DNA of 13,753 bases, taken from assembly GCA_029856105.1 (NCBI GenBank), contig JAHQWH010000227.1:1-13753 (forward strand). The letters run 5' to 3'. The notes below the pieces were generated by a model. That model was given only the letters and a program-made list of their open reading frames with translations, ran no database searches and was not told the DNA's origin. Positions 3,318-13,753 of the stretch are shown in pieces (positions within the stretch are counted from its first letter, which is position 1; each line of letters starts with the position of its first letter). The position numbers and the translations under genes are program-made. The stretch is from Promethearchaeia archaeon. Lineage in GTDB: Archaea; Asgardarchaeota; Lokiarchaeia; Sigyniarchaeales; SOKP01.

Positions 3318-4586
3318 TTAGGTTCCTTCTTCGTAGCCGTGGATGTAGTTATACTGCTCCTCGGTTAATGTGTCGATCTCGATACCCATTGCTTGAAGTT
3401 TTAGGGTGCCCACTCTATCGTCAATATTCACTGGAACATCTACCATTCCTGGATTTAGTGAGTCTTTGTTTTTGACGATGTACTCAGACATTAGCGATTG
3501 TAGACCAAAAGACATGTCCATTACTTCAGCAGGATGCCCTTCAGAAAGCACTAAATTAGCTAATCTTCCTTTAGCAAGTAGGTATATCCTTTTGCCATCA
3601 GGAAATATTAATTCTTCTACATCTTGCCTTAGTGGTCTGATTTCCTTAGCATGTTCATACAATTCTTTAGTGGGAATCTCAATATCGAAATGGCCCAAAT
3701 TACCGAGAATAACACCCTCCTTCAGTTTATTGAACATTTCTTTTGATGGCGGAATTACATGCTTACAACCCGTTGCTGTAAGAATTATATCGGCAATGGG
3801 GAGAGTTTTTTCAATAGGCATAACATTATATCCCGCGAATTTGGCTTGTAAAGCTTTTATTGCATCAACTTCAGTAACAATTACATTAGCCCCTAATCCT
3901 CTAGCTCTTAATGCCATTCCTGAGCTGCAATGCCCGAACCCTGCAATCACAACATTTTTTCCTGCGAAGAGAACATGCATGCCATAGATCGCGGCTACAA
4001 TTCCTTGTCCTGTCCCTAATTCATTATCAAACTGGTTTTTACATCGCGCATCATTTACAGGGAAGAGTGGGACTCTCAATATTCCTTGTTTATCCATTGC
4101 TTTAAATCTCTTAACCCCAGTTGTAGTTTCTTCTTGACATGCGATTATCGTGCCATTTTCAATCAACTCTGGAAACTCCTTATGAGCAGTAACAATCATA
4201 TCCGCACCATCGTCAATTAAAATATTCGGTTTTGCCTTGAGACACTCTCGAATACACCAATAAAATTCTTCGTCTGTGTTGCCATGCCACGCAAAAACAT
4301 TTATTCCTTCTTGAACTAAGGCTGCAGCAACATCATCTTGAGTAGATAACGGATTACTTCCACATAAATAAACTTCAGCACCCCCTGCTTTCAAAGTACG
4401 GGCGAGATTTCCGGTTTCTTTAGTAATGTGTAAACATCCTGCAATTGTTATGCCTTTCAAGGGCTTCTCTTTGGAAAACCTCTTACGAATAATTTCGGCT
4501 GTAACAGGCATTTTAGATTCAGCTACATACAGAGCTTCTTTGCCTTTTTCAGCAAGGTTTTCATCAGCTACTTTATAATTAACCAT
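3318..4586 (-). CDS. ahcY: S-adenosyl-L-homocysteine hydrolase family (adenosylhomocysteinase or S-inosylhomocysteine hydrolase)
   Basis: Motifs CLHITKET, GSNPLSTQDDVAAAL, IDDGAD, QEETTTGV, GHFDIEI, GRLANL, EGHPAEVMDMSF and the archaeal-type C-terminus EEGT. ATG at 4586 is preferred over the GTG at 4598. Confidence 0.96.
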   Translation of the reverse strand: MVNYKVADENLAEKGKEALYVAESKMPVTAEIIRKRFSKEKPLKGITIAGCLHITKETGNLARTLKAGGAEVYLCGSNPLSTQDDVAAALVQEGINVFAWHGNTDEEFYWCIRECLKAKPNILIDDGADMIVTAHKEFPELIENGTIIACQEETTTGVKRFKAMDKQGILRVPLFPVNDARCKNQFDNELGTGQGIVAAIYGMHVLFAGKNVVIAGFGHCSSGMALRARGLGANVIVTEVDAIKALQAKFAGYNVMPIEKTLPIADIILTATGCKHVIPPSKEMFNKLKEGVILGNLGHFDIEIPTKELYEHAKEIRPLRQDVEELIFPDGKRIYLLAKGRLANLVLSEGHPAEVMDMSFGLQSLMSEYIVKNKDSLNPGMVDVPVNIDDRVGTLKLQAMGIEIDTLTEEQYNYIHGYEEGT

Positions 4587-4608
4587 ATTCAATTTCACTA
4601 TTCACAAA

Positions 4609-4627
4609 AATGATAAATTTTAACATT
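4609..4627. promoter_or_regulatory. Imperfect palindrome, candidate Lrp-family operator in the ahcY/lrp divergent region
   Basis: AATGATAAA-T-TTTAACATT (8 of 9 arm positions complementary, TG-N11-CA core with AT-rich centre), 23-41 nt upstream of the ahcY ATG. The AT-rich context lowers its significance. Confidence 0.3.
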
Positions 4628-4746
4628 ATACTAATCTAATAATTTTATGATATTATTTAAATATGATTGTCAAAAAGTGTAAACTAAATAATGCAATATT
4701 TATACAAACAATTATATTTTTAAATATCAATTACTTAAAAATTATT

Positions 4747-5706: not shown

Positions 5707-5792
5707 TTTTACTATAGTTTTTTGATTGAATTTTAAAAAAGTAGGAAAAAATTAATTTAAATACCTTTGAATGATATCTTTAATTGAAAAAC

Positions 5793-7874
5793 ATGAATTA
5801 TTTTTTTGAATTAATAGCTAAAGGAATAGGTTTTTCTAGAGTAGGAAGAATAATTTGCTCGAAGGAATCTAAAAGGTTTATATCGACACCTAATATCCTC
5901 GTTCCAATGAAGAAAAGTTTAATGAACCATATAAGTTTTCTTGAGGAATTTGAAGACCACGAGGTATTTTTGATCTTAAAAGAATTTTACTTGAAAATTG
6001 GATTTTTACGAGAAAAATTTAAGCATACCGGCTTTATTTATAAGCACAATGGTTCAATGGAAAAATTTAAAGAAATTTTAGCTAATAATATTGATATTTT
6101 TTCAGAGGATAACATTATACCTTTAATTCCCTTTAATATTCCTACAACAACCATAAATAAGGAATTCGCTAAAAACGAAATTATCAATTTTATAACCAAC
6201 GCTAATCAAATCTTAAATCAATATCGGAATTTAGATTTTGGTTTATCTATTAAGATTTTTGAGCATCCCGAATTATTTGATCTGTATCTTCCTTTAATTA
6301 AGGACAACAGTAACGTTAGAATAATAAATTTAGTCGATCTATTTGATGTATTTAGTAAATATAGAAATATTTTAAAAGTAATTTTTCAAATTAAGCAGGA
6401 GCTTGACAACAATTTAGTCTTAATGGCTTCCGGTAGAATTATTCCGAAATTATATCCAATTTTAGTCTATTTAGGAGTAGATTTAATCGATTGTTCCTAC
6501 CTATTATATTTATCTTCTGAAAATTTCTACGATACTATAGAACATCTACTTCCCATTTATAAATTGAAATATTTACCCTGTCCGTGTTCTATTTGCAAAA
6601 GGAAATTAAAACATATCCTAGAAAACAAATACTCTTCCGAAAAAATAGAACAATTAACTCTTCATAATATTATATCTGCATATACATACATGAATAAAAT
6701 AAAGTTGTATTTGCGCACGGAGGATTTTCGAGGTTTTGTAGAAAAAACCTCATTTGACGACATGAACATAATATCGATGTTAAAAGTCTTAGATAAGCAG
6801 TACTTTAACGCGATGAAACTTGAAACTCCGATAACTCAAGCGAACAAAATCATTAATTGTTTTGGTCCATCTTCATATTATAGACCAGATTTCCAAGAAT
6901 TTCGGGAGAAATTATTGAAAAATTTTACGCCGGAATCATGGACAAAATTAATTATCATACTTCCTTGCTCGGCAAAGAAACCTTACTCCGACTCGAAATC
7001 TCATAAAAAATTTCATAGCATCATACGTAAATTTCGCGATTTTCCTGATTTTCAAGAAATAATTTTAACTTCTCCCTTAGGAACCATTCCTAGACAACTT
7101 GAAAATATATACCCCGTAAATTCATATGACATCTCGGTAACTGGGGATTGGGATAATGAAGAGATAACAATTGCATCAAATATGTTAATTAAACTATTAG
7201 AGAAATATGATAAGGACATACCTATTATATGTTATTTAAAAGAACTTGGATACATAAAAATTATCGATAACGCTCGATTAAAACTAAAGAATAAATTCTA
7301 CTTCACGGAAGTTAAAAGCAGTCTAACTACCATTGAATCCCTAAAATCTTTAGAAAACAGTATTAGGGACCTAAAAGATTCGTTTAAACCCTTAGAACCT
7401 ATTCCAAAAAATAAAAATTTCTCAAAGAGTTGGACTCGTAAATTTAATAAAATATTGGATTATCAATTTGGAACTGGTTCTGGAGAAAAAATATGTTCTA
7501 ACGGAATTAGGACTAGAAAAAATGATAGAAGGCACCAAATAGAAATTTTTGACTTAGTAAGTAATGAGAATCTTGGAAAACTCAATTTTAATACAGGACA
7601 AATAGAATTAAATCTTTCAGGAGCTAATAAACTATTACCTTTAAGTGAAAATACGAATTTTATAGTTTTTGATGGTCAAGTAATTAAGGGGAACACCTTA
7701 TTTCGTCCTGGGATAGTAAGTTATAGTCCAAATCTCGTTCCAAAAGATTTTACGCTTATTTTCGATAAAGATAAAAAGAATTTAATTGGATTAGGGAACT
7801 TAGAAGTTGGTTCAAATTATATAAAGAATTCAAAAACAGGTAAAATTGCAAATGTCTACGAAAAAATTAAATGA
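5793..7874 (+). CDS. arcS: Archaeosine synthase subunit alpha (ArcS/TgtA2; TGT-like barrel, DUF5591-type domain, PUA)
   Basis: TGT-like N-terminus (SRVGRI...STPNIL, LGVDLID, Zn site CPCSIC...HN), ArcS signature LPCSAKKPYSDSKSHKKF and ILTSPLGTIPRQLE..YP..SYDISVTGDW, then DYQFGTG and a C-terminal PUA-like GNTLFRPGI. Start is ATG 5793 or TTG 5784. Confidence 0.88.
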   Translation: MNYFFELIAKGIGFSRVGRIICSKESKRFISTPNILVPMKKSLMNHISFLEEFEDHEVFLILKEFYLKIGFLREKFKHTGFIYKHNGSMEKFKEILANNIDIFSEDNIIPLIPFNIPTTTINKEFAKNEIINFITNANQILNQYRNLDFGLSIKIFEHPELFDLYLPLIKDNSNVRIINLVDLFDVFSKYRNILKVIFQIKQELDNNLVLMASGRIIPKLYPILVYLGVDLIDCSYLLYLSSENFYDTIEHLLPIYKLKYLPCPCSICKRKLKHILENKYSSEKIEQLTLHNIISAYTYMNKIKLYLRTEDFRGFVEKTSFDDMNIISMLKVLDKQYFNAMKLETPITQANKIINCFGPSSYYRPDFQEFREKLLKNFTPESWTKLIIILPCSAKKPYSDSKSHKKFHSIIRKFRDFPDFQEIILTSPLGTIPRQLENIYPVNSYDISVTGDWDNEEITIASNMLIKLLEKYDKDIPIICYLKELGYIKIIDNARLKLKNKFYFTEVKSSLTTIESLKSLENSIRDLKDSFKPLEPIPKNKNFSKSWTRKFNKILDYQFGTGSGEKICSNGIRTRKNDRRHQIEIFDLVSNENLGKLNFNTGQIELNLSGANKLLPLSENTNFIVFDGQVIKGNTLFRPGIVSYSPNLVPKDFTLIFDKDKKNLIGLGNLEVGSNYIKNSKTGKIANVYEKIK

Positions 7875-8955
7875 AAATAATTTCCTCATTGAAAAAATCA
7901 AAGTTCTTAGATCTAAAACTATTAGAAAAAAGTCAAAATTTGAAGACGAACGATTAGATAAACCAGTAAGTTTTTGGATAAAAGAAGATCGTTTGCTCAA
8001 GGAAAAAGGAAAGGAGTTCACGATTATATTAAGAACAAAGGGATGTAGTTGGGCATTAGGAGAAACTGGAGGGTGTTCAATGTGTGGATATATTCAAGAT
8101 TCTACCATTGTCGAAATTGACCCTAATCATATTATCAACCAATTTGATTATGCCTTACAAAAAAAAATCAAGGAAATTTCTATCGACAAAGATGATTTCA
8201 TCCTCAAGATTTTTAATTCTGGAAGCTTTTTCGATGACGACGAAATATCTGCAGATGTTCGTGAACATATATATAAAAAAATCGCTGAAATCCCTAAAAT
8301 AAAAGAAATTGTTGTAGAATCTCGAGTTGATTATATAACTCGTGAGAAGCTTAAAAAAATGAAAGGCATATTAGAAAATAAGTACATCGAAGTAGCAATA
8401 GGTTTGGAAACGGTAAATGATTACATTAGAAATATTTACGTAAATAAAGGCCTAAAATTCGAAGATTTTTTAAAGGCAGTCCAAATTTGTAAGGAAAATA
8501 ATATAGGTGTGAGAGTGTATTTATTGTTTAAACCACCCTTCCTAAATGAACAAACAGCAATAGATGATTGTGCTAGTTCTATTCAAAAATTAGCTGAATT
8601 AAAGGTTAATACTATTTCAATCAACCCTCTCAACATTCAAAAAAATTCACTAGTGGAATATTTATGGTATCAGAACCGATATCGGCCCCCTTGGTTTTAT
8701 TCTTTATTTAAATGTATAATTAAAGCTTGCAAAGACAATTCTATCTTGGATTCAGTTAGGATTATATCATCGCCCTCTGGAGCTGGCTCGAAAAGAGGAA
8801 TTCACAATTGTTTAAAAAGAGATTGCAACGAATTTATGATAAACTCTCTCAAAGAATTTGTAATTTCTCAAAATATCAATTGTTTAGTAAAAAAAGACGA
8901 TAGCTACTCGTGTGGGTGCCTAATAAAATATCAGTTGCAGAAAAATTTCATTTAA
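7852..8955 (+). CDS. raSEA: Archaeosine biosynthesis radical SAM enzyme RaSEA
   Basis: ILRTKGCSWALGETGGCSMCGY (CX9CX2C), KIFNSGSFFDDDE, VESR, AIGLET, YLLFKPPFLNE, YRPPW, GSKRGIHNC and a terminal CGC match the TIGR01210-type family. Overlaps the arcS stop. Start is ATG 7852 or TTG 7846. Confidence 0.92.
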   Translation: MSTKKLNENNFLIEKIKVLRSKTIRKKSKFEDERLDKPVSFWIKEDRLLKEKGKEFTIILRTKGCSWALGETGGCSMCGYIQDSTIVEIDPNHIINQFDYALQKKIKEISIDKDDFILKIFNSGSFFDDDEISADVREHIYKKIAEIPKIKEIVVESRVDYITREKLKKMKGILENKYIEVAIGLETVNDYIRNIYVNKGLKFEDFLKAVQICKENNIGVRVYLLFKPPFLNEQTAIDDCASSIQKLAELKVNTISINPLNIQKNSLVEYLWYQNRYRPPWFYSLFKCIIKACKDNSILDSVRIISSPSGAGSKRGIHNCLKRDCNEFMINSLKEFVISQNINCLVKKDDSYSCGCLIKYQLQKNFI

Positions 8956-9220: not shown

Positions 9221-9469
9221 TTGCAAAAATATATTAAGCTAAATCTATCCTATCTCGGGAAGTCTAAGAAACATCAGATCTTTAGAGCTAAAAGGTGGGA
9301 CAAAAACCTTGAAAATATTTTTCATAAATCTGTTTTTACGGAAAAATACGAAGAAATTGGTTATATTAAAGAAATTTTTGGTCCTATAAATTTGCCATTT
9401 ATTTCTATAAATACATTACCTAACAAAAAATTTAATCCAAATGATACTCTCTATGCTAAATTACATTAG
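9221..9469 (+). CDS. gar1: H/ACA RNP subunit Gar1/Naf1-family protein
   Basis: 82 aa with EEIGYIKEIFGPINLPFISI, matching the Gar1 motif G-x-V/I-x-D/E-V/I-F-G-P-V-x-x-P-Y. Its position directly upstream of tfb is a gene order known from many archaea. Confidence 0.85.
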   Translation: MQKYIKLNLSYLGKSKKHQIFRAKRWDKNLENIFHKSVFTEKYEEIGYIKEIFGPINLPFISINTLPNKKFNPNDTLYAKLH

Positions 9470-9518
9470 TATTTTATATTTATTTTAAGAAAAAGAAATA
9501 TCAAAAAAGGTGTAAATT

Positions 9519-10481
9519 ATTTCAAGTTGGAACCAAAGCAACGCATTTGAAGAAAATAATTTGAATATAAGTGATGTTAGTTGTAGTGAATGCGGTAAAA
9601 ATATTCTATTTGACGAAAATAGAGGTTTATTGGTTTGTCAAGAATGTGGTTTAGTACACTCAGAAAAGCATATAGATCAGGGTCCTGAATGGCGTGCTTT
9701 TGATGCAGATCAAAAAAAAAAAAGAACTAGGACAGGAGCGCCTATGACATATATGATCCACGACAAGGGCTTAAGCACAATGATAGACTGGAAAAATAAG
9801 GATATCTTTGGCAAAGAGATTTCTGCTAAGATTAGAGGCCAAATATATCGCTTGAGAAAGTGGCAAAGTAGGATTAGAGTATCAGATGCAACTGAAAGAA
9901 ACTTGACTTTTGCCTTAAGTGAGTTAGATCGCATGGCTTCAAACCTTGATCTTCAGAAAAATCTTCGAGAATGTTCTGCAAAAATCTATAGAGACGCTGT
10001 TGGAGCTCATCTTATTCGAGGAAGAAGCATTGAAGGCGTTGCTGCTGCAAGTCTATATGCCGCTTGTAGAAGGTATAAAGTACCACGCACATTAAACGAG
10101 ATAGCAGAAGTTGCTCGTGTTGATAAAAAAGAAATAGGACGATCCTTCAGATTTATCTCAAGAGAATTAGAACTAAATTTAAACCCAACTAAACCATTAG
10201 ATTTTCTTACTCGGTTTATATCTGAATTAGAACTATCTACAGATTGTCAAAAAATGGCAAAGAAAATTATTAAAAAAGCTGAATTAATGGGACTAACCTC
10301 TGGGCGTGGACCAACGGGATTATGTGCCGCAGCAATTTATACCGCATCAATTCTCACTAAAGAACGGAGAACTCAAAGAAAAATAGCCAAAGTTAGTCAA
10401 GTCACAGAGGTGACCGTTCGAAATCGCTTCTCCGAACTTATAGAAAATTTAGATCTTGGAATTAGTTTAAAGAAAAAGTAA
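9519..10481 (+). CDS. tfb: Transcription initiation factor IIB (TFB)
   Basis: Zn ribbon CSEC...CQEC, B-reader [15 protein letters not shown], two cyclin repeats (LIRGRSIEG; TSGRGPTG) and C-terminal [22 protein letters not shown]. The start is uncertain: ATT 9519 (6 nt after SD-like AAGGTG) or TTG 9561. Confidence 0.97.
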
Positions 10482-10595: not shown

Positions 10596-10952
10596 ATGAA
10601 ACAAGAGAATACTAGATTAATAAATCAAATTGAAGTAAACTATTTCTTACACAGGATTAAGAAAAATTTCCCCAATTTTGTAGCAGGCGTAATAACCGAT
10701 AAAAATGGATTCGCAATAGGCTCGGATATCTCAAAAAGACTTTGGATTCACGAGAATAAACTAGCTTTATGGGCAATATCCAAAAATAAGGAGAATAAGG
10801 ATATCTTAAACGATCCAAATTTAGTTCAACTCAAGTTTGATATCGATAAAGGGAAGAGATTTAAACTATTTATTTTGTTAGAAAAATCGAAAAATAATAA
10901 AAACAGAGTAAAACCCTTAAAAACTTTGATTAGCTCGCAAGAGTTATTTTAA
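10596..10952 (+). CDS. Hypothetical protein with roadblock/profilin-like N-terminal half
   Basis: Helix followed by NFVAGVITDKNGFAIGS, the h-h-h-x-D-x-x-G-h-x-I pattern of roadblock/longin-like folds. SD-like AGGT lies upstream of the ATG. Confidence 0.6.
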   Translation: MKQENTRLINQIEVNYFLHRIKKNFPNFVAGVITDKNGFAIGSDISKRLWIHENKLALWAISKNKENKDILNDPNLVQLKFDIDKGKRFKLFILLEKSKNNKNRVKPLKTLISSQELF

Positions 10953-11129
10953 TCCGTTGCGCAACATAAAACTATTTAGAGTGAATTAAATTTTTATAGA
11001 TAGAATTTTATTTTTATACTATATATACTTAAAAAGGATAATTAGAGTTTACTTTAAATAAATTCTTTTTAATAAAAAAGCACATTGGATAATATCTAAA
11101 TCGCTTAAAAAAATAAATGGTAGGTCCAA

Positions 11130-11603
11130 TTGAGTTATTCTCAGGACGAAAATACATTAAAAAAAATATTAAACGAAATTATTAATAGTACGCCAGGTTT
11201 AAAATACGCTATAATCATAGACGATACTGGAATAACTATTGTGAGCGAGTCTAAATTCATTCTAAAGGCTTCCAAAGACGATATCTCCGTTGAAAAAATT
11301 GGAGCAATTGGAGGTGCTGTGTTCACCGCTGGCGAAGAACAAGGATACATCCTCGGTTATGGAAACATTCACCTACAAATCACTGAATATTTTAAAGGGA
11401 TGATTTTTTCTATAAAAGCAGGTAAAGGAGTGTTATGCGTTGCTTCAGATAAAAATATTCAAATAGGGCTTGTAAGAGCGATAATGAACAAGTACTCGCC
11501 AAAGATTGCGGTAATTTTAAACCAATACATTCAAACAGAGGAAGGAGAAATCAATAAAGAGTTGAAAGAACTCTTTAATGCGGACACGGTTAGTCTTTTA
11601 TGA
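11130..11603 (+). CDS. Roadblock/LC7 (MglB/LAMTOR-like) domain protein with C-terminal helical extension
   Basis: LKKILNEIINSTPGLKYAIIIDDTGITIVS...VEKIGAIGGAVF...LQITEYFKGMIFSIKAGKGVLCVASDKNIQIGLVRAIM follows the canonical roadblock pattern. SD-like GGTAGGT lies upstream of the TTG. Confidence 0.9.
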   Translation: MSYSQDENTLKKILNEIINSTPGLKYAIIIDDTGITIVSESKFILKASKDDISVEKIGAIGGAVFTAGEEQGYILGYGNIHLQITEYFKGMIFSIKAGKGVLCVASDKNIQIGLVRAIMNKYSPKIAVILNQYIQTEEGEINKELKELFNADTVSLL

Positions 11604-11646: not shown

Positions 11647-11958
11647 AAAATCAGCATATATTGTAGCCTAGTGCACTAACACATAATTTATCATTTAATG
11701 GTTATTCCATAAAATCAAATAAGTTCTCTCGTGCTAGGCGATAATTTCTATGCCTTTTTGGGGCATAATCATATCTGCACGCTGGGTACTGACTCGAATC
11801 TCATCGCACGGAATTACCTTAGCTTGATTAAGAGCCCATTTTTGATGCAGTAAATTGTTGATTAATAAACTCAGGATGTACGCATAAGTTTGCACACGTA
11901 ATCACGGGTTATCATACGTGTCCTCGAATATGCCAATGTTCCATCATCATTTTCCCAT
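11647..11958 (-). ncRNA. Multi-hairpin box H/ACA guide RNA (or cluster) flanked by box C and box D motifs
   Basis: Minus strand, 5' to 3': box C AUGAUGA (11950-11944); hairpin 1 (11933-11882) with K-loop, then ACA (11879-11877) and CUGA (11874-11871); hairpin 2 CUGCAU/GUGCAG (11850-11775), then AUAUGA; small hairpin UAUGCC/GGCAUA (11767-11749); hairpin 3 GCCUAG/CUAGGC (11739-11666), then ACA (11664-11662); terminal CUGA (11654-11651). GC is elevated relative to the flanks and there is no credible ORF. Confidence 0.75.
11877..11933 (-). ncRNA. H/ACA hairpin predicted to guide LSU rRNA pseudouridylation at E. coli-equivalent U2496
   Basis: Lower stem GCAUA/UAUGC. Pocket 5'-UUCGAGG and 5'-GCAAACU. 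Upper stem ACACGUA/UACGUGU capped by the K-loop AUGA-UAACCC-GUGAUUA. ACA lies exactly 14 nt from the upper stem. The pocket is complementary to RGUUUGC-U-N-CCUCGA. Confidence 0.85.
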
Positions 11959-11978
11959 GTAATAATAAAAAAGCTGAG

Positions 11979-11986
11979 TTAAAAAA
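11979..11986 (-). promoter_or_regulatory. Candidate TATA box for the guide RNA
   Basis: The minus strand reads GAATAAA-TTTTTTAA about 25 nt upstream of the AUGGGAAAAUGAUGA 5' end, which is archaeal BRE/TATA spacing. Confidence 0.35.
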
Positions 11987-12188: not shown

Positions 12189-13753
12189 TTACTGCTCGTA
12201 TAATGCTGGAATATCCCACCATACGGGATAGAAGTAAGTTCTGCCCATTGCGTTTGATGGAAAATCCATTAAGTCTTTGAGCCATGCATCATTATCTATA
12301 CCGACGTATCCATATGCCCAAGGCATATCTTGTTCTACTAGAAGTGTTTGAATCCTATCGTAATAGACTTCTCTTTTATGATCGTCCGTTTCTAATAATG
12401 CTTCTTCCATTAAGAGCTGTACGTTGTCCATTAGGTCAAAAGCGTCCCTACCAGCTTCAATTGCGGATAAATATCCATTATATTTAGCACCATTAGATGC
12501 AACAGATCTGTTGGTAAATAATGGATTAATATAGTTGCTAGGATCATTATAATCGGGAATCCATCCGATCCAGAACATTTGGTTTAAATCTCTGTGGAGA
12601 CCAGCGAGTTCGTACAAACTTAAGATGAATTGTTCAAACGTGGTACCAGCGTCTTCTACTTCTATTCCAATATAATCAAGATTATCCACCAAAAGAACAT
12701 ACATATTTTCCCGCATATCATTACCAATGTTATAAGTATAGTTAAACGTAGCAAAAGTTGCGGCTTTCCATTCAGCATCAGTTGTGAATCCAACACCATA
12801 TCCCATACTTTGCATAGTAGCTTGGGCTGCAGCACGATTAAAGAGTGTTACATCATTTGTCCAGTTAGCATATGCTATACCTTCTGGGATAGGTGATTTT
12901 AACCTGACTGCTTGTCCTTCTTTTAGCTCTTCAATTATAAAAGAATAATTTATTGCCTGAGAAATTGCTTTCCTAAAGGTTGTGTTAATCCAAACGCTAT
13001 TCATTCCAAGATATTGAACTCCAAGATCTTGTCCAGCTTCAAAGAGCGTAATATCTGGATCCGAGTCAAATGTAGATAACATAGAACCCATAGGATCAGT
13101 TATGATATCAACATCACCGGATAATAAAGCATTATTTCTGATTTGAGGGTCGGTGATAATAGAGAAGATTAATGTATCAATCTTAGGTCGTAATCTCCAG
13201 TAAAAATCGTTTGCGTGGAATAATATTTCAACGCCGGCTTCATAACCGTCATAAACAAACGGTCCGGTACCAACCAAGTCTCCATTTGCAGTGTCGATTG
13301 GTTCATCGAGAGGAGTGGAAGCTGGTGAAAGCATATATGCCGCATTAAAGGATAAGATAGCTTCGAAGGCACTATATATCGTATTTAAAGTGAATTTTAT
13401 TGTATAATCATCCACGACTTCCGTTTTATTAATAATATTGTGAAATACTGGCGCTGTTTCTCCTGTAGTAATGTTAACAACATCTGTTCTAACGTAAAAT
13501 TGATAAAGCTCTCCAGCTTTAGCTAATTGATTGGCCATTAAACCAGCTAATCTGTCGAAATTCCATTTAGCGGCAACAGCATCAAATTTGGTACCATCAT
13601 GGAACCATACATCATCTCTTAACTCAACGGTATATGTAGGTAGTACTCCAGTAAAGTTCCAATCACCTTTAGCTTTTGCGAGTATTGGTAAAATTTCTAA
13701 GTCAGGATCGGTTAAATTGTACATAAATAATGCTTCACAAACTTGATCATGTA
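12189..13753 (-). CDS. ABC transporter substrate-binding protein, family 5 (DppA/OppA/NikA-like), 5' end outside window
   Basis: LRDDVWFHDGTKFDAVAAKWNFDR, VVDDYTIKFTL, VGTGPF, FRKAISQAIN and WIPDYNDP. The frame stays open upstream of the track's M (HDQVCEALF-MYNL, resembling the family's 'xYEgL' motif), so the true start is beyond 13753. Confidence 0.93.
   Translation of the reverse strand, partial: HDQVCEALFMYNLTDPDLEILPILAKAKGDWNFTGVLPTYTVELRDDVWFHDGTKFDAVAAKWNFDRLAGLMANQLAKAGELYQFYVRTDVVNITTGETAPVFHNIINKTEVVDDYTIKFTLNTIYSAFEAILSFNAAYMLSPASTPLDEPIDTANGDLVGTGPFVYDGYEAGVEILFHANDFYWRLRPKIDTLIFSIITDPQIRNNALLSGDVDIITDPMGSMLSTFDSDPDITLFEAGQDLGVQYLGMNSVWINTTFRKAISQAINYSFIIEELKEGQAVRLKSPIPEGIAYANWTNDVTLFNRAAAQATMQSMGYGVGFTTDAEWKAATFATFNYTYNIGNDMRENMYVLLVDNLDYIGIEVEDAGTTFEQFILSLYELAGLHRDLNQMFWIGWIPDYNDPSNYINPLFTNRSVASNGAKYNGYLSAIEAGRDAFDLMDNVQLLMEEALLETDDHKREVYYDRIQTLLVEQDMPWAYGYVGIDNDAWLKDLMDFPSNAMGRTYFYPVWWDIPALYEQ

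Follow-up and report, generated by a model that had tools for sequence, protein, structure and literature searches.

A clamped three-motif H/ACA RNA in Asgard archaea, a divergent relative of HgcG/Pab40 with predicted targets in the functional centres of 23S rRNA

The closest described relatives of the RNA reported here are Pab40, Pf7, Pho40 and Afu4, known as HgcG (Rfam RF00064). In P. abyssi, the first motif of Pab40 makes Ψ2588, a pseudouridine that was detected in rRNA and reconstituted in vitro; the authors list it as a site that eukaryotes share (PMC2377435). The third motif makes Ψ1915, and the second has been shown to act on Ψ1932, while L2646 (=2554) is no more than a computational candidate for it. 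A homologue of stems II and III of Pf7, sR-h45, is found in Haloferax volcanii; it has no motif 1, its first stem targets U2586, and its second stem makes both Ψ1915 and Ψ1917 from one pocket, with four bases unpaired. Productive archaeal guides have a GA stem of 10 layers and a distance of 14–15 nt to the ANA box (PMC4652768), and guide spacings of up to 17–19 nt can work (PMC7075261). H/ACA-like motifs with degenerate lower stems have already been described, and a length of 7–9 bp is typical, not strict. In yeast, position 2496 of E. coli becomes 2865 (offset between the large-subunit numberings, 369; PMC2584109), a pseudouridine guided by snR46 (PMC5699541), while U2554 is Ψ2923, which is guided by snR10. 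In the open-access literature, we found no paper on H/ACA guides in Asgard archaea.

The window, i.e. the whole stretch of 13,753 nt that was analysed, belongs to a Promethearchaeia archaeon (assembly GCA_029856105.1, contig JAHQWH010000227.1). An original prediction, made from the letters alone, placed a stand-alone 57-nt H/ACA guide hairpin on its minus strand, at 11933–11877, and the sequence is present there exactly as written. Yet the hairpin does not stand alone: it is motif 1, the first third of a guide RNA of about 300 nt with three H/ACA hairpins (11956–11654, minus strand), whose ends were inferred from conservation in 29 same-genus genomes. Its parts, together with a neighbouring gene for an H/ACA protein, are as follows:

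11654–11956, minus strand: whole box H/ACA guide RNA with its three motifs (block conserved across 29 genomes of the genus, covariation, GC contrast, HgcG match of homologues)
11978–11986, minus strand: TATA-like box TTTTTA[A/G], 27–30 nt upstream of the conserved 5' GGG
11940–11952, minus strand: 5' strand of the basal K-turn clamp that encloses motif 1, with box C-like RAUGA
11877–11933, minus strand: H/ACA motif 1 (pocket 11928–11922 and 11893–11887; K-loop 11915–11900; ACA 11879–11877)
11867–11876, minus strand: 3' strand of the basal K-turn clamp, with box D-like CUGA, directly after the ACA
11859–11865, minus strand: 5' strand of clamp helix 2, pairing with 11771–11765 just after the motif 2 box (93% of cells paired)
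11772–11850, minus strand: H/ACA motif 2 (pocket 11840–11834 and 11791–11784; non-standard K-turn; AUA/ACA box)
11765–11771, minus strand: 3' strand of clamp helix 2, then CCC able to pair with the 5' GGG
11748–11753, minus strand: 5' strand of clamp helix 3, pairing with 11661–11654 (absent in some genus members)
11662–11739, minus strand: H/ACA motif 3 (pocket 11730–11725 and 11680–11675; K-turn; ACA 11664–11662)
9221–9469, plus strand: gar1-like gene for an H/ACA RNP protein, immediately 5' of tfb (Pfam Gar1 E-value 1.9e-6, 28 bits against 29.3)

The structure, conservation, complementarity, family match and protein genes found here lead us to the reading, with a probability of roughly 0.88, that motif 1 is part of the Asgard form of the Pab40/Pf7/Afu4 (HgcG) RNA, in which motif 1 would direct Ψ2496, motif 2 would act on U2554 and motif 3 on helix 69.

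The RNA occupies an AT-rich gap, flanked by the gene for a solute-binding protein (ending at 12189, minus strand) and by a convergent gene of 157 aa (ending at 11603, plus strand), and its GC content of 38% compares with 16–24% in the flanks. The TATA-like box is found at its distance of 27–30 nt in 28 of 30 genus loci, with the flanks diverging, and is putatively the RNA's own promoter. In a 59-pair model of the whole RNA, 93% of cells are paired, as against 33–42% in slid controls, and 16 pairs show two-sided changes among the 29 genus homologues; the model was drawn from the same sequences on which it was scored, and these kin are not independent. Short contigs from RNA runs of relatives span 11742–11947, giving neither strand nor ends, and are no more than suggestive of expression; they come from two runs of different studies (depth 66 and 9, neighbours 0–3), and the runs were found with this stretch. 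One assembly (G009, contigs C465 and C124) holds two slightly differing copies of the RNA, possibly a strain mixture. Elsewhere in the window, two small ORFs at 10596–11603 (plus strand) have no Pfam matches and appear roadblock-like by eye; at 25 of the 29 genus loci, the second of them lies next to the RNA. Two overlapping genes at 5784–8955 (plus strand) encode a 696-aa TGT/DUF5591/PUA protein and a radical SAM protein, a pair resembling the archaeosine synthesis pair ArcS-RaSEA.

Motif 1 contains all the elements that had been read from its letters: a lower and an upper stem, a K-loop with tandem G.A pairs, a U.U pair and an A-U replacing the usual C-G, and an ACA 14 nt below the upper stem. 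Its GA stem has 10 layers in all 29 same-genus homologues, and the distance from pocket to ACA is 14 nt in 28 of them and 15 nt in the remaining one, matching the published productive geometry. The upper stem is 93.6% paired across the genus, with two-sided changes in four of its seven pairs, and the lower stem is 99% paired; the latter measures 4–5 bp in the host family, short of the canonical 7–9 bp, and 6–8 bp in some distant homologues. Both A's of the ACA box are invariant across families, and the pocket letters CGAGG and GCA(A) are fixed phylum-wide while the stems vary, the fixed letters being those that pair with rRNA. A descriptor derived from the hairpin has one match in the 3.66-Mb genome, at its own locus. 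Single-sequence folding was uninformative, the energy of the hairpin being ordinary (z −0.37), and neither the window nor the RNA element alone has a relevant Rfam match, so that the case for a guide rests on comparison. The genus homologues, in which pocket, K-loop and ACA are conserved and the stems covary, bear out the guide claim. With a covarying stem-pocket-stem arrangement, a K-loop on a 10-layer stem, ANA spacing and a bipartite target, the 57-nt element can be regarded, at the level of sequence comparison, as a confirmed, genuine H/ACA guide hairpin.

Its target in the host 23S rRNA reads GGCUUGC-UU-CCUCGAU and lies at host position 2713, which, from its helix-89 context, we take to be E. 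coli 2496. The pocket pairs with four contiguous bases on the 5' side and six on the 3' side, around the unpaired U2496–U2497. This is the site that the original prediction had named; the host has a U there, no site is better by pocket complementarity, and the equivalence with yeast Ψ2865 and snR46 holds as well. The details of the pairing came out differently: the genome does not contain RGUUUGCUACCUCGA, the string put forward as a test, the two bases left unpaired are UU and not UA, and a 5' duplex given as 6–7 bp has only four contiguous pairs (about −2.9 kcal/mol), followed by an A.C mismatch, a C-G pair and a U.G pair. Across the host 23S and a 16S from the same genus (most of the host's own 16S is unassembled), U2496 is the sole site with at least 3+3 Watson–Crick pairs, and only 5 of 2000 shuffled pockets had equal or better sites (P about 0.003). 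The target UUGC-UN-CCUCG is present in all 23S genes examined except for that of L142, which is aberrant, looks mis-binned and was left out. Moreover, positions 2549, 2588 and 2603 in P. abyssi are spaced by 39 and 15, as are 2826, 2865 and 2880 in yeast, and the same offsets land on U in the host 23S too. [quoted passage not shown]

In the host 23S and most Loki-type 23S, position 2497 is U and position 2555 is A (in the host, L001, near 4214 and 4303), and A2497 is retained in families f8 and f29; bacterial 23S usually has A at 2497 and U at 2555. At a total of 3332 nt, the host 23S has extra sequence inserted around helix 91 and within domain VI (L001, about 4245–4275 and 4540–4720), consistent with Asgard expansion segments.

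Motif 3, which aligns with motif 3 of HgcG, pairs with 4+5 bases around the loop of helix 69 in two overlapping registers that expose U1915 or U1917 (host positions 2141 and 2143), and its target score was equalled in 19 of 1000 shuffles. It most likely guides modification in this loop, at U1915 and possibly also at U1917, a double target for which the second stem of sR-h45 is a precedent. As a side observation, the 23S sequence leaves the consensus right after helix 69 in families f8 and f29 (L127, L129, L134), and the 23S match of genome G116 is split; these irregularities in helices 69–71 are possibly rRNA introns or insertions.

All three hairpins are enclosed by basal clamps, a K-turn in the case of motif 1 and plain helices in the case of motifs 2 and 3. 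The non-canonical stem of the K-turn (GGA/UCC) is invariant in 29 of 29 genus homologues, and its canonical stem is 97% paired, with compensation; the K-turn is retained with GC/GC stems in families f8, f11, f17, f18, f21, f25, f26 and f29. Most other families form the same clamps from unrelated sequences, whereas f10 and the HgcG consensus are without them; since an automatic clamp table picked the wrong boxes in f8, f21, f26, f18 and f10, clamps were judged by the pairing model and by reading. In this layout, the ACA of motif 1 is located in an internal loop, adjoining a helix. The clamps probably stiffen the lower stems, which are short, and shield the ends of the RNA.

Covariance models of motif 1 detect the RNA in 82 of the 151 Asgard genomes, spread over 14 families, with 27 of these sequences having been part of the model; sixteen further matches, mostly weaker, were read and have the multi-hairpin layout. 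One of the models, R2, missed three complete genomes of a sister family, and a motif 3 model recovered the RNA in one of these and in genome G054, so blanks in the R2 survey do not mean absence. In G050, a complete sister-family genome of 4.3 Mb, the RNA lies on the minus strand at about C1:3369800–3370100. A pattern scan of genome contigs yielded seven Promethearchaeota records and two bacterial matches that are probably due to chance; it was too strict, and also missed the Thermococcales. Several homologues match HgcG at 21–45 bits, with E-values down to 2e-10; for scores of 32–45 bits, E-values range from 9e-7 to 2e-10, one f8 copy reaching 32 bits and one f10 copy 45 bits (2e-10), the latter across all three motifs. 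HgcG does not match the window copy, and a search of 21 close genomes with RF00064 missed the locus. As all scores are below the gathering threshold of 77 bits, the Asgard RNA is a divergent relative of HgcG and not a formal member of the Rfam family.

The genome encodes Cbf5 and Nop10, and it has an L7Ae-like gene that scores 129.6 bits against a cut-off of 134.6. The gar1-like gene lies in the window itself, directly upstream of tfb (9221–10481, plus strand), with TTG starts called for both. Transcribed in the host, the RNA would assemble with these proteins: L7Ae would bind the K-loop of motif 1 and Cbf5-Nop10-Gar1 its lower stem and ACA, while the K-turn around the motif would add a second L7Ae-type K-turn among the basal clamps. 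The pocket would then pair with UUGC and CCUCGA at the base of helix 89, leaving U2496–U2497 unpaired, and U2496 would be isomerised to pseudouridine as by a standard archaeal H/ACA RNP.

The best site of motif 2 in the host 23S is the A-loop around U2554 (host position 2801), with 7 bp on one side, 4+3 on the other and three bases unpaired, and the score of this site was equalled in 8 of 1000 shuffles. The 5' strand of the pocket and helix 92 change together: AAUGGGC faces GCCCAUU in the host family, GAUAGGC faces GCCUAUU in f8, and GACAGGC faces GCCUGUU in f17. In f26, the guide strand is GACGGGC, from which GCCCGUY was predicted in advance of retrieving the rRNA; the sequence in a genome of that genus proved to be GCCCGUU. 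The pocket hence covaries with helix 92 in four families (f1, f8, f17 and f26); the f18 strand matches at 6 of 7 positions, and in f2 the fit to U2554 is weak. Motif 2 could instead, as in haloarchaea, be directed at U2585/U2586, an alternative that concerns this motif only and that we regard as unlikely. It would agree with the 3' strand of the pocket, (A)ACCC(AG), which pairs with CUGGGU(U) at −8.6 kcal/mol, with SL1 of sR-h45, the homologue of Pf7 stem II, which makes Ψ2586, and with a pocket-to-box spacing for U2554 that, at 16–18 nt in the host family, exceeds the 14–15 rule. It would not account for the way in which the 5' strand tracks helix 92; moreover, five 23S genes of the host genus (L037–L039, L041 and L042) have C at 2586 with motif 2 retained, and the 3' target side for 2585 is weak (−2.2 versus −10.5 kcal/mol). 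We therefore favour U2554 in the A-loop as the most likely target, and motif 2 may use both sites. Our literature search found no report of a pseudouridine at 2554 in archaea, which does not show its absence. The f29 RNA (L118:295–500) is a two-motif form without motif 2, and in the f29 23S, A2557 pairs with U2551.

The boxes of the clamp raise a different question, given that motif 1 of the host is flanked by AUGAUGA on its 5' side and by CUGA on its 3' side, that the element has weak Rfam matches to C/D RNAs (e.g. snoU43, E-value 5.9), and that a transcript uniting H/ACA and C/D parts is known in Pab21. A chimera of this kind, or of the kind of the composite scaRNAs, would bind Nop5-fibrillarin at these boxes and guide 2'-O-methylation as well. 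Among the homologues, however, the full box C is often broken while the register of the K-turn is kept, box D varies (CAGA, CUAA, UGGA), and the ACA and a variable lower stem occupy the place 5' of box D where a conserved antisense element of 10–12 nt would be expected; nor was a C'/D' pair seen. With variable boxes and no antisense element, a role as a methylation guide is very unlikely. A U3-like RNA with terminal C/D boxes was rejected, the 3' CUGA being lost in about a third of the genus homologues. We give an equally small chance to the view that motif 1 is mainly an rRNA chaperone, keeping helix 89 open while the ribosome is assembled and modifying it little, if at all: the short 5' target duplex would suit it, and roles of this kind in folding are known for snR10 and U14 of yeast (PMC5699541), but the geometry for catalysis (10 layers, 14 nt) is strictly conserved and the orthologous motif of Pab40 is active. 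Finally, the ordinary folding energy and the silence of Rfam on the window might suggest a chance hairpin or a terminator in an intergenic gap. We consider this ruled out by the covarying conservation in 29 genus genomes, the spread over 14 Asgard families, the unique rRNA match and the similarity of the homologues to HgcG. A pseudouridine guide of the Pab40 type thus remains our preferred reading.

The original prediction had implied a novelty shared by Asgard archaea and eukaryotes. As motif 1 of Pab40 makes the same pseudouridine in Euryarchaeota, the pair of guide and site is not specific to Asgard archaea, and since Ψ2496/2865 is common to Thermococcales, Asgard archaea and eukaryotes, it predates the Asgard–eukaryote split. 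On the sequence record, the motif 1 guide is an old archaeal feature and not a special Asgard–eukaryote link, and it is a counterpart of snR46, as had been proposed, only in the sense of sharing its target site. What is new is the clamped layout, together with a probable shift of motif 2 to U2554. Somewhat short of even odds, we think it possible that most Asgard lineages rebuilt an ancestral Pab40-type RNA by placing clamps on every hairpin, moving the ACA into an internal loop and redirecting motif 2 from U2586 to U2554. A single RNA would then make the pseudouridines for which yeast relies on snR46, snR10 and snR191, and Ψ2554 would be a site shared by Asgard archaea and eukaryotes, for which we found no experimental report in other archaea. 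The RNA, whose window copy Rfam misses, yields concrete predictions, open to test, for three pseudouridines at functional centres in the lineage nearest to eukaryotes; its layout bears on whether Cbf5 accepts an ACA within an internal loop, and motif 2 would be a case of guide–target covariation at the A-loop.

For the comparison with known systems, the Rfam HgcG consensus stood in for the Pab40 sequence. Both RNAs have three motifs in the same order; they share the motif 1 pocket, CGAGG and GC(G/A)A, with its K-loop, a 3' strand of motif 2 ending in AACCC, and a 3' strand of motif 3 with GUUA toward helix 69. Compared with the published targets, complementarity assigns motif 1 to 2496, the E. 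coli equivalent of Ψ2588, and motif 3 to helix 69, as in Pab40. In the HgcG consensus, however, the next stem begins directly after each ACA, whereas each Asgard hairpin is clamped, with a K-turn around motif 1, and the lower stem measures 4–5 bp in the Asgard host family and 8 in HgcG. The 5' strand of motif 2 is GGGC(UC), which fits U2554, in the Asgard RNA and GGUC, which fits U2586, in HgcG; that of motif 3 is GAGAGA, leaving 3–5 target bases unpaired, in the former and GGGUUAG in the latter. The f10 copies (L146–L148, L159) are unclamped and Pab40-like, and lie just upstream of a tRNA gene. In yeast, the predicted sites 2496, 2554 and 1915/1917 are those of snR46 (Ψ2865), snR10 (Ψ2923) and snR191 (Ψ2258/2260), which are separate two-hairpin snoRNAs without K-turns. 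A C/D-like K-turn beside an H/ACA motif, as in the Asgard RNA, occurs in Pab21/snoR9, a combined H/ACA and C/D transcript, and in eukaryotic composite scaRNAs such as U85; the Asgard K-turn differs from these in closing around one hairpin only and in lacking an antisense element.
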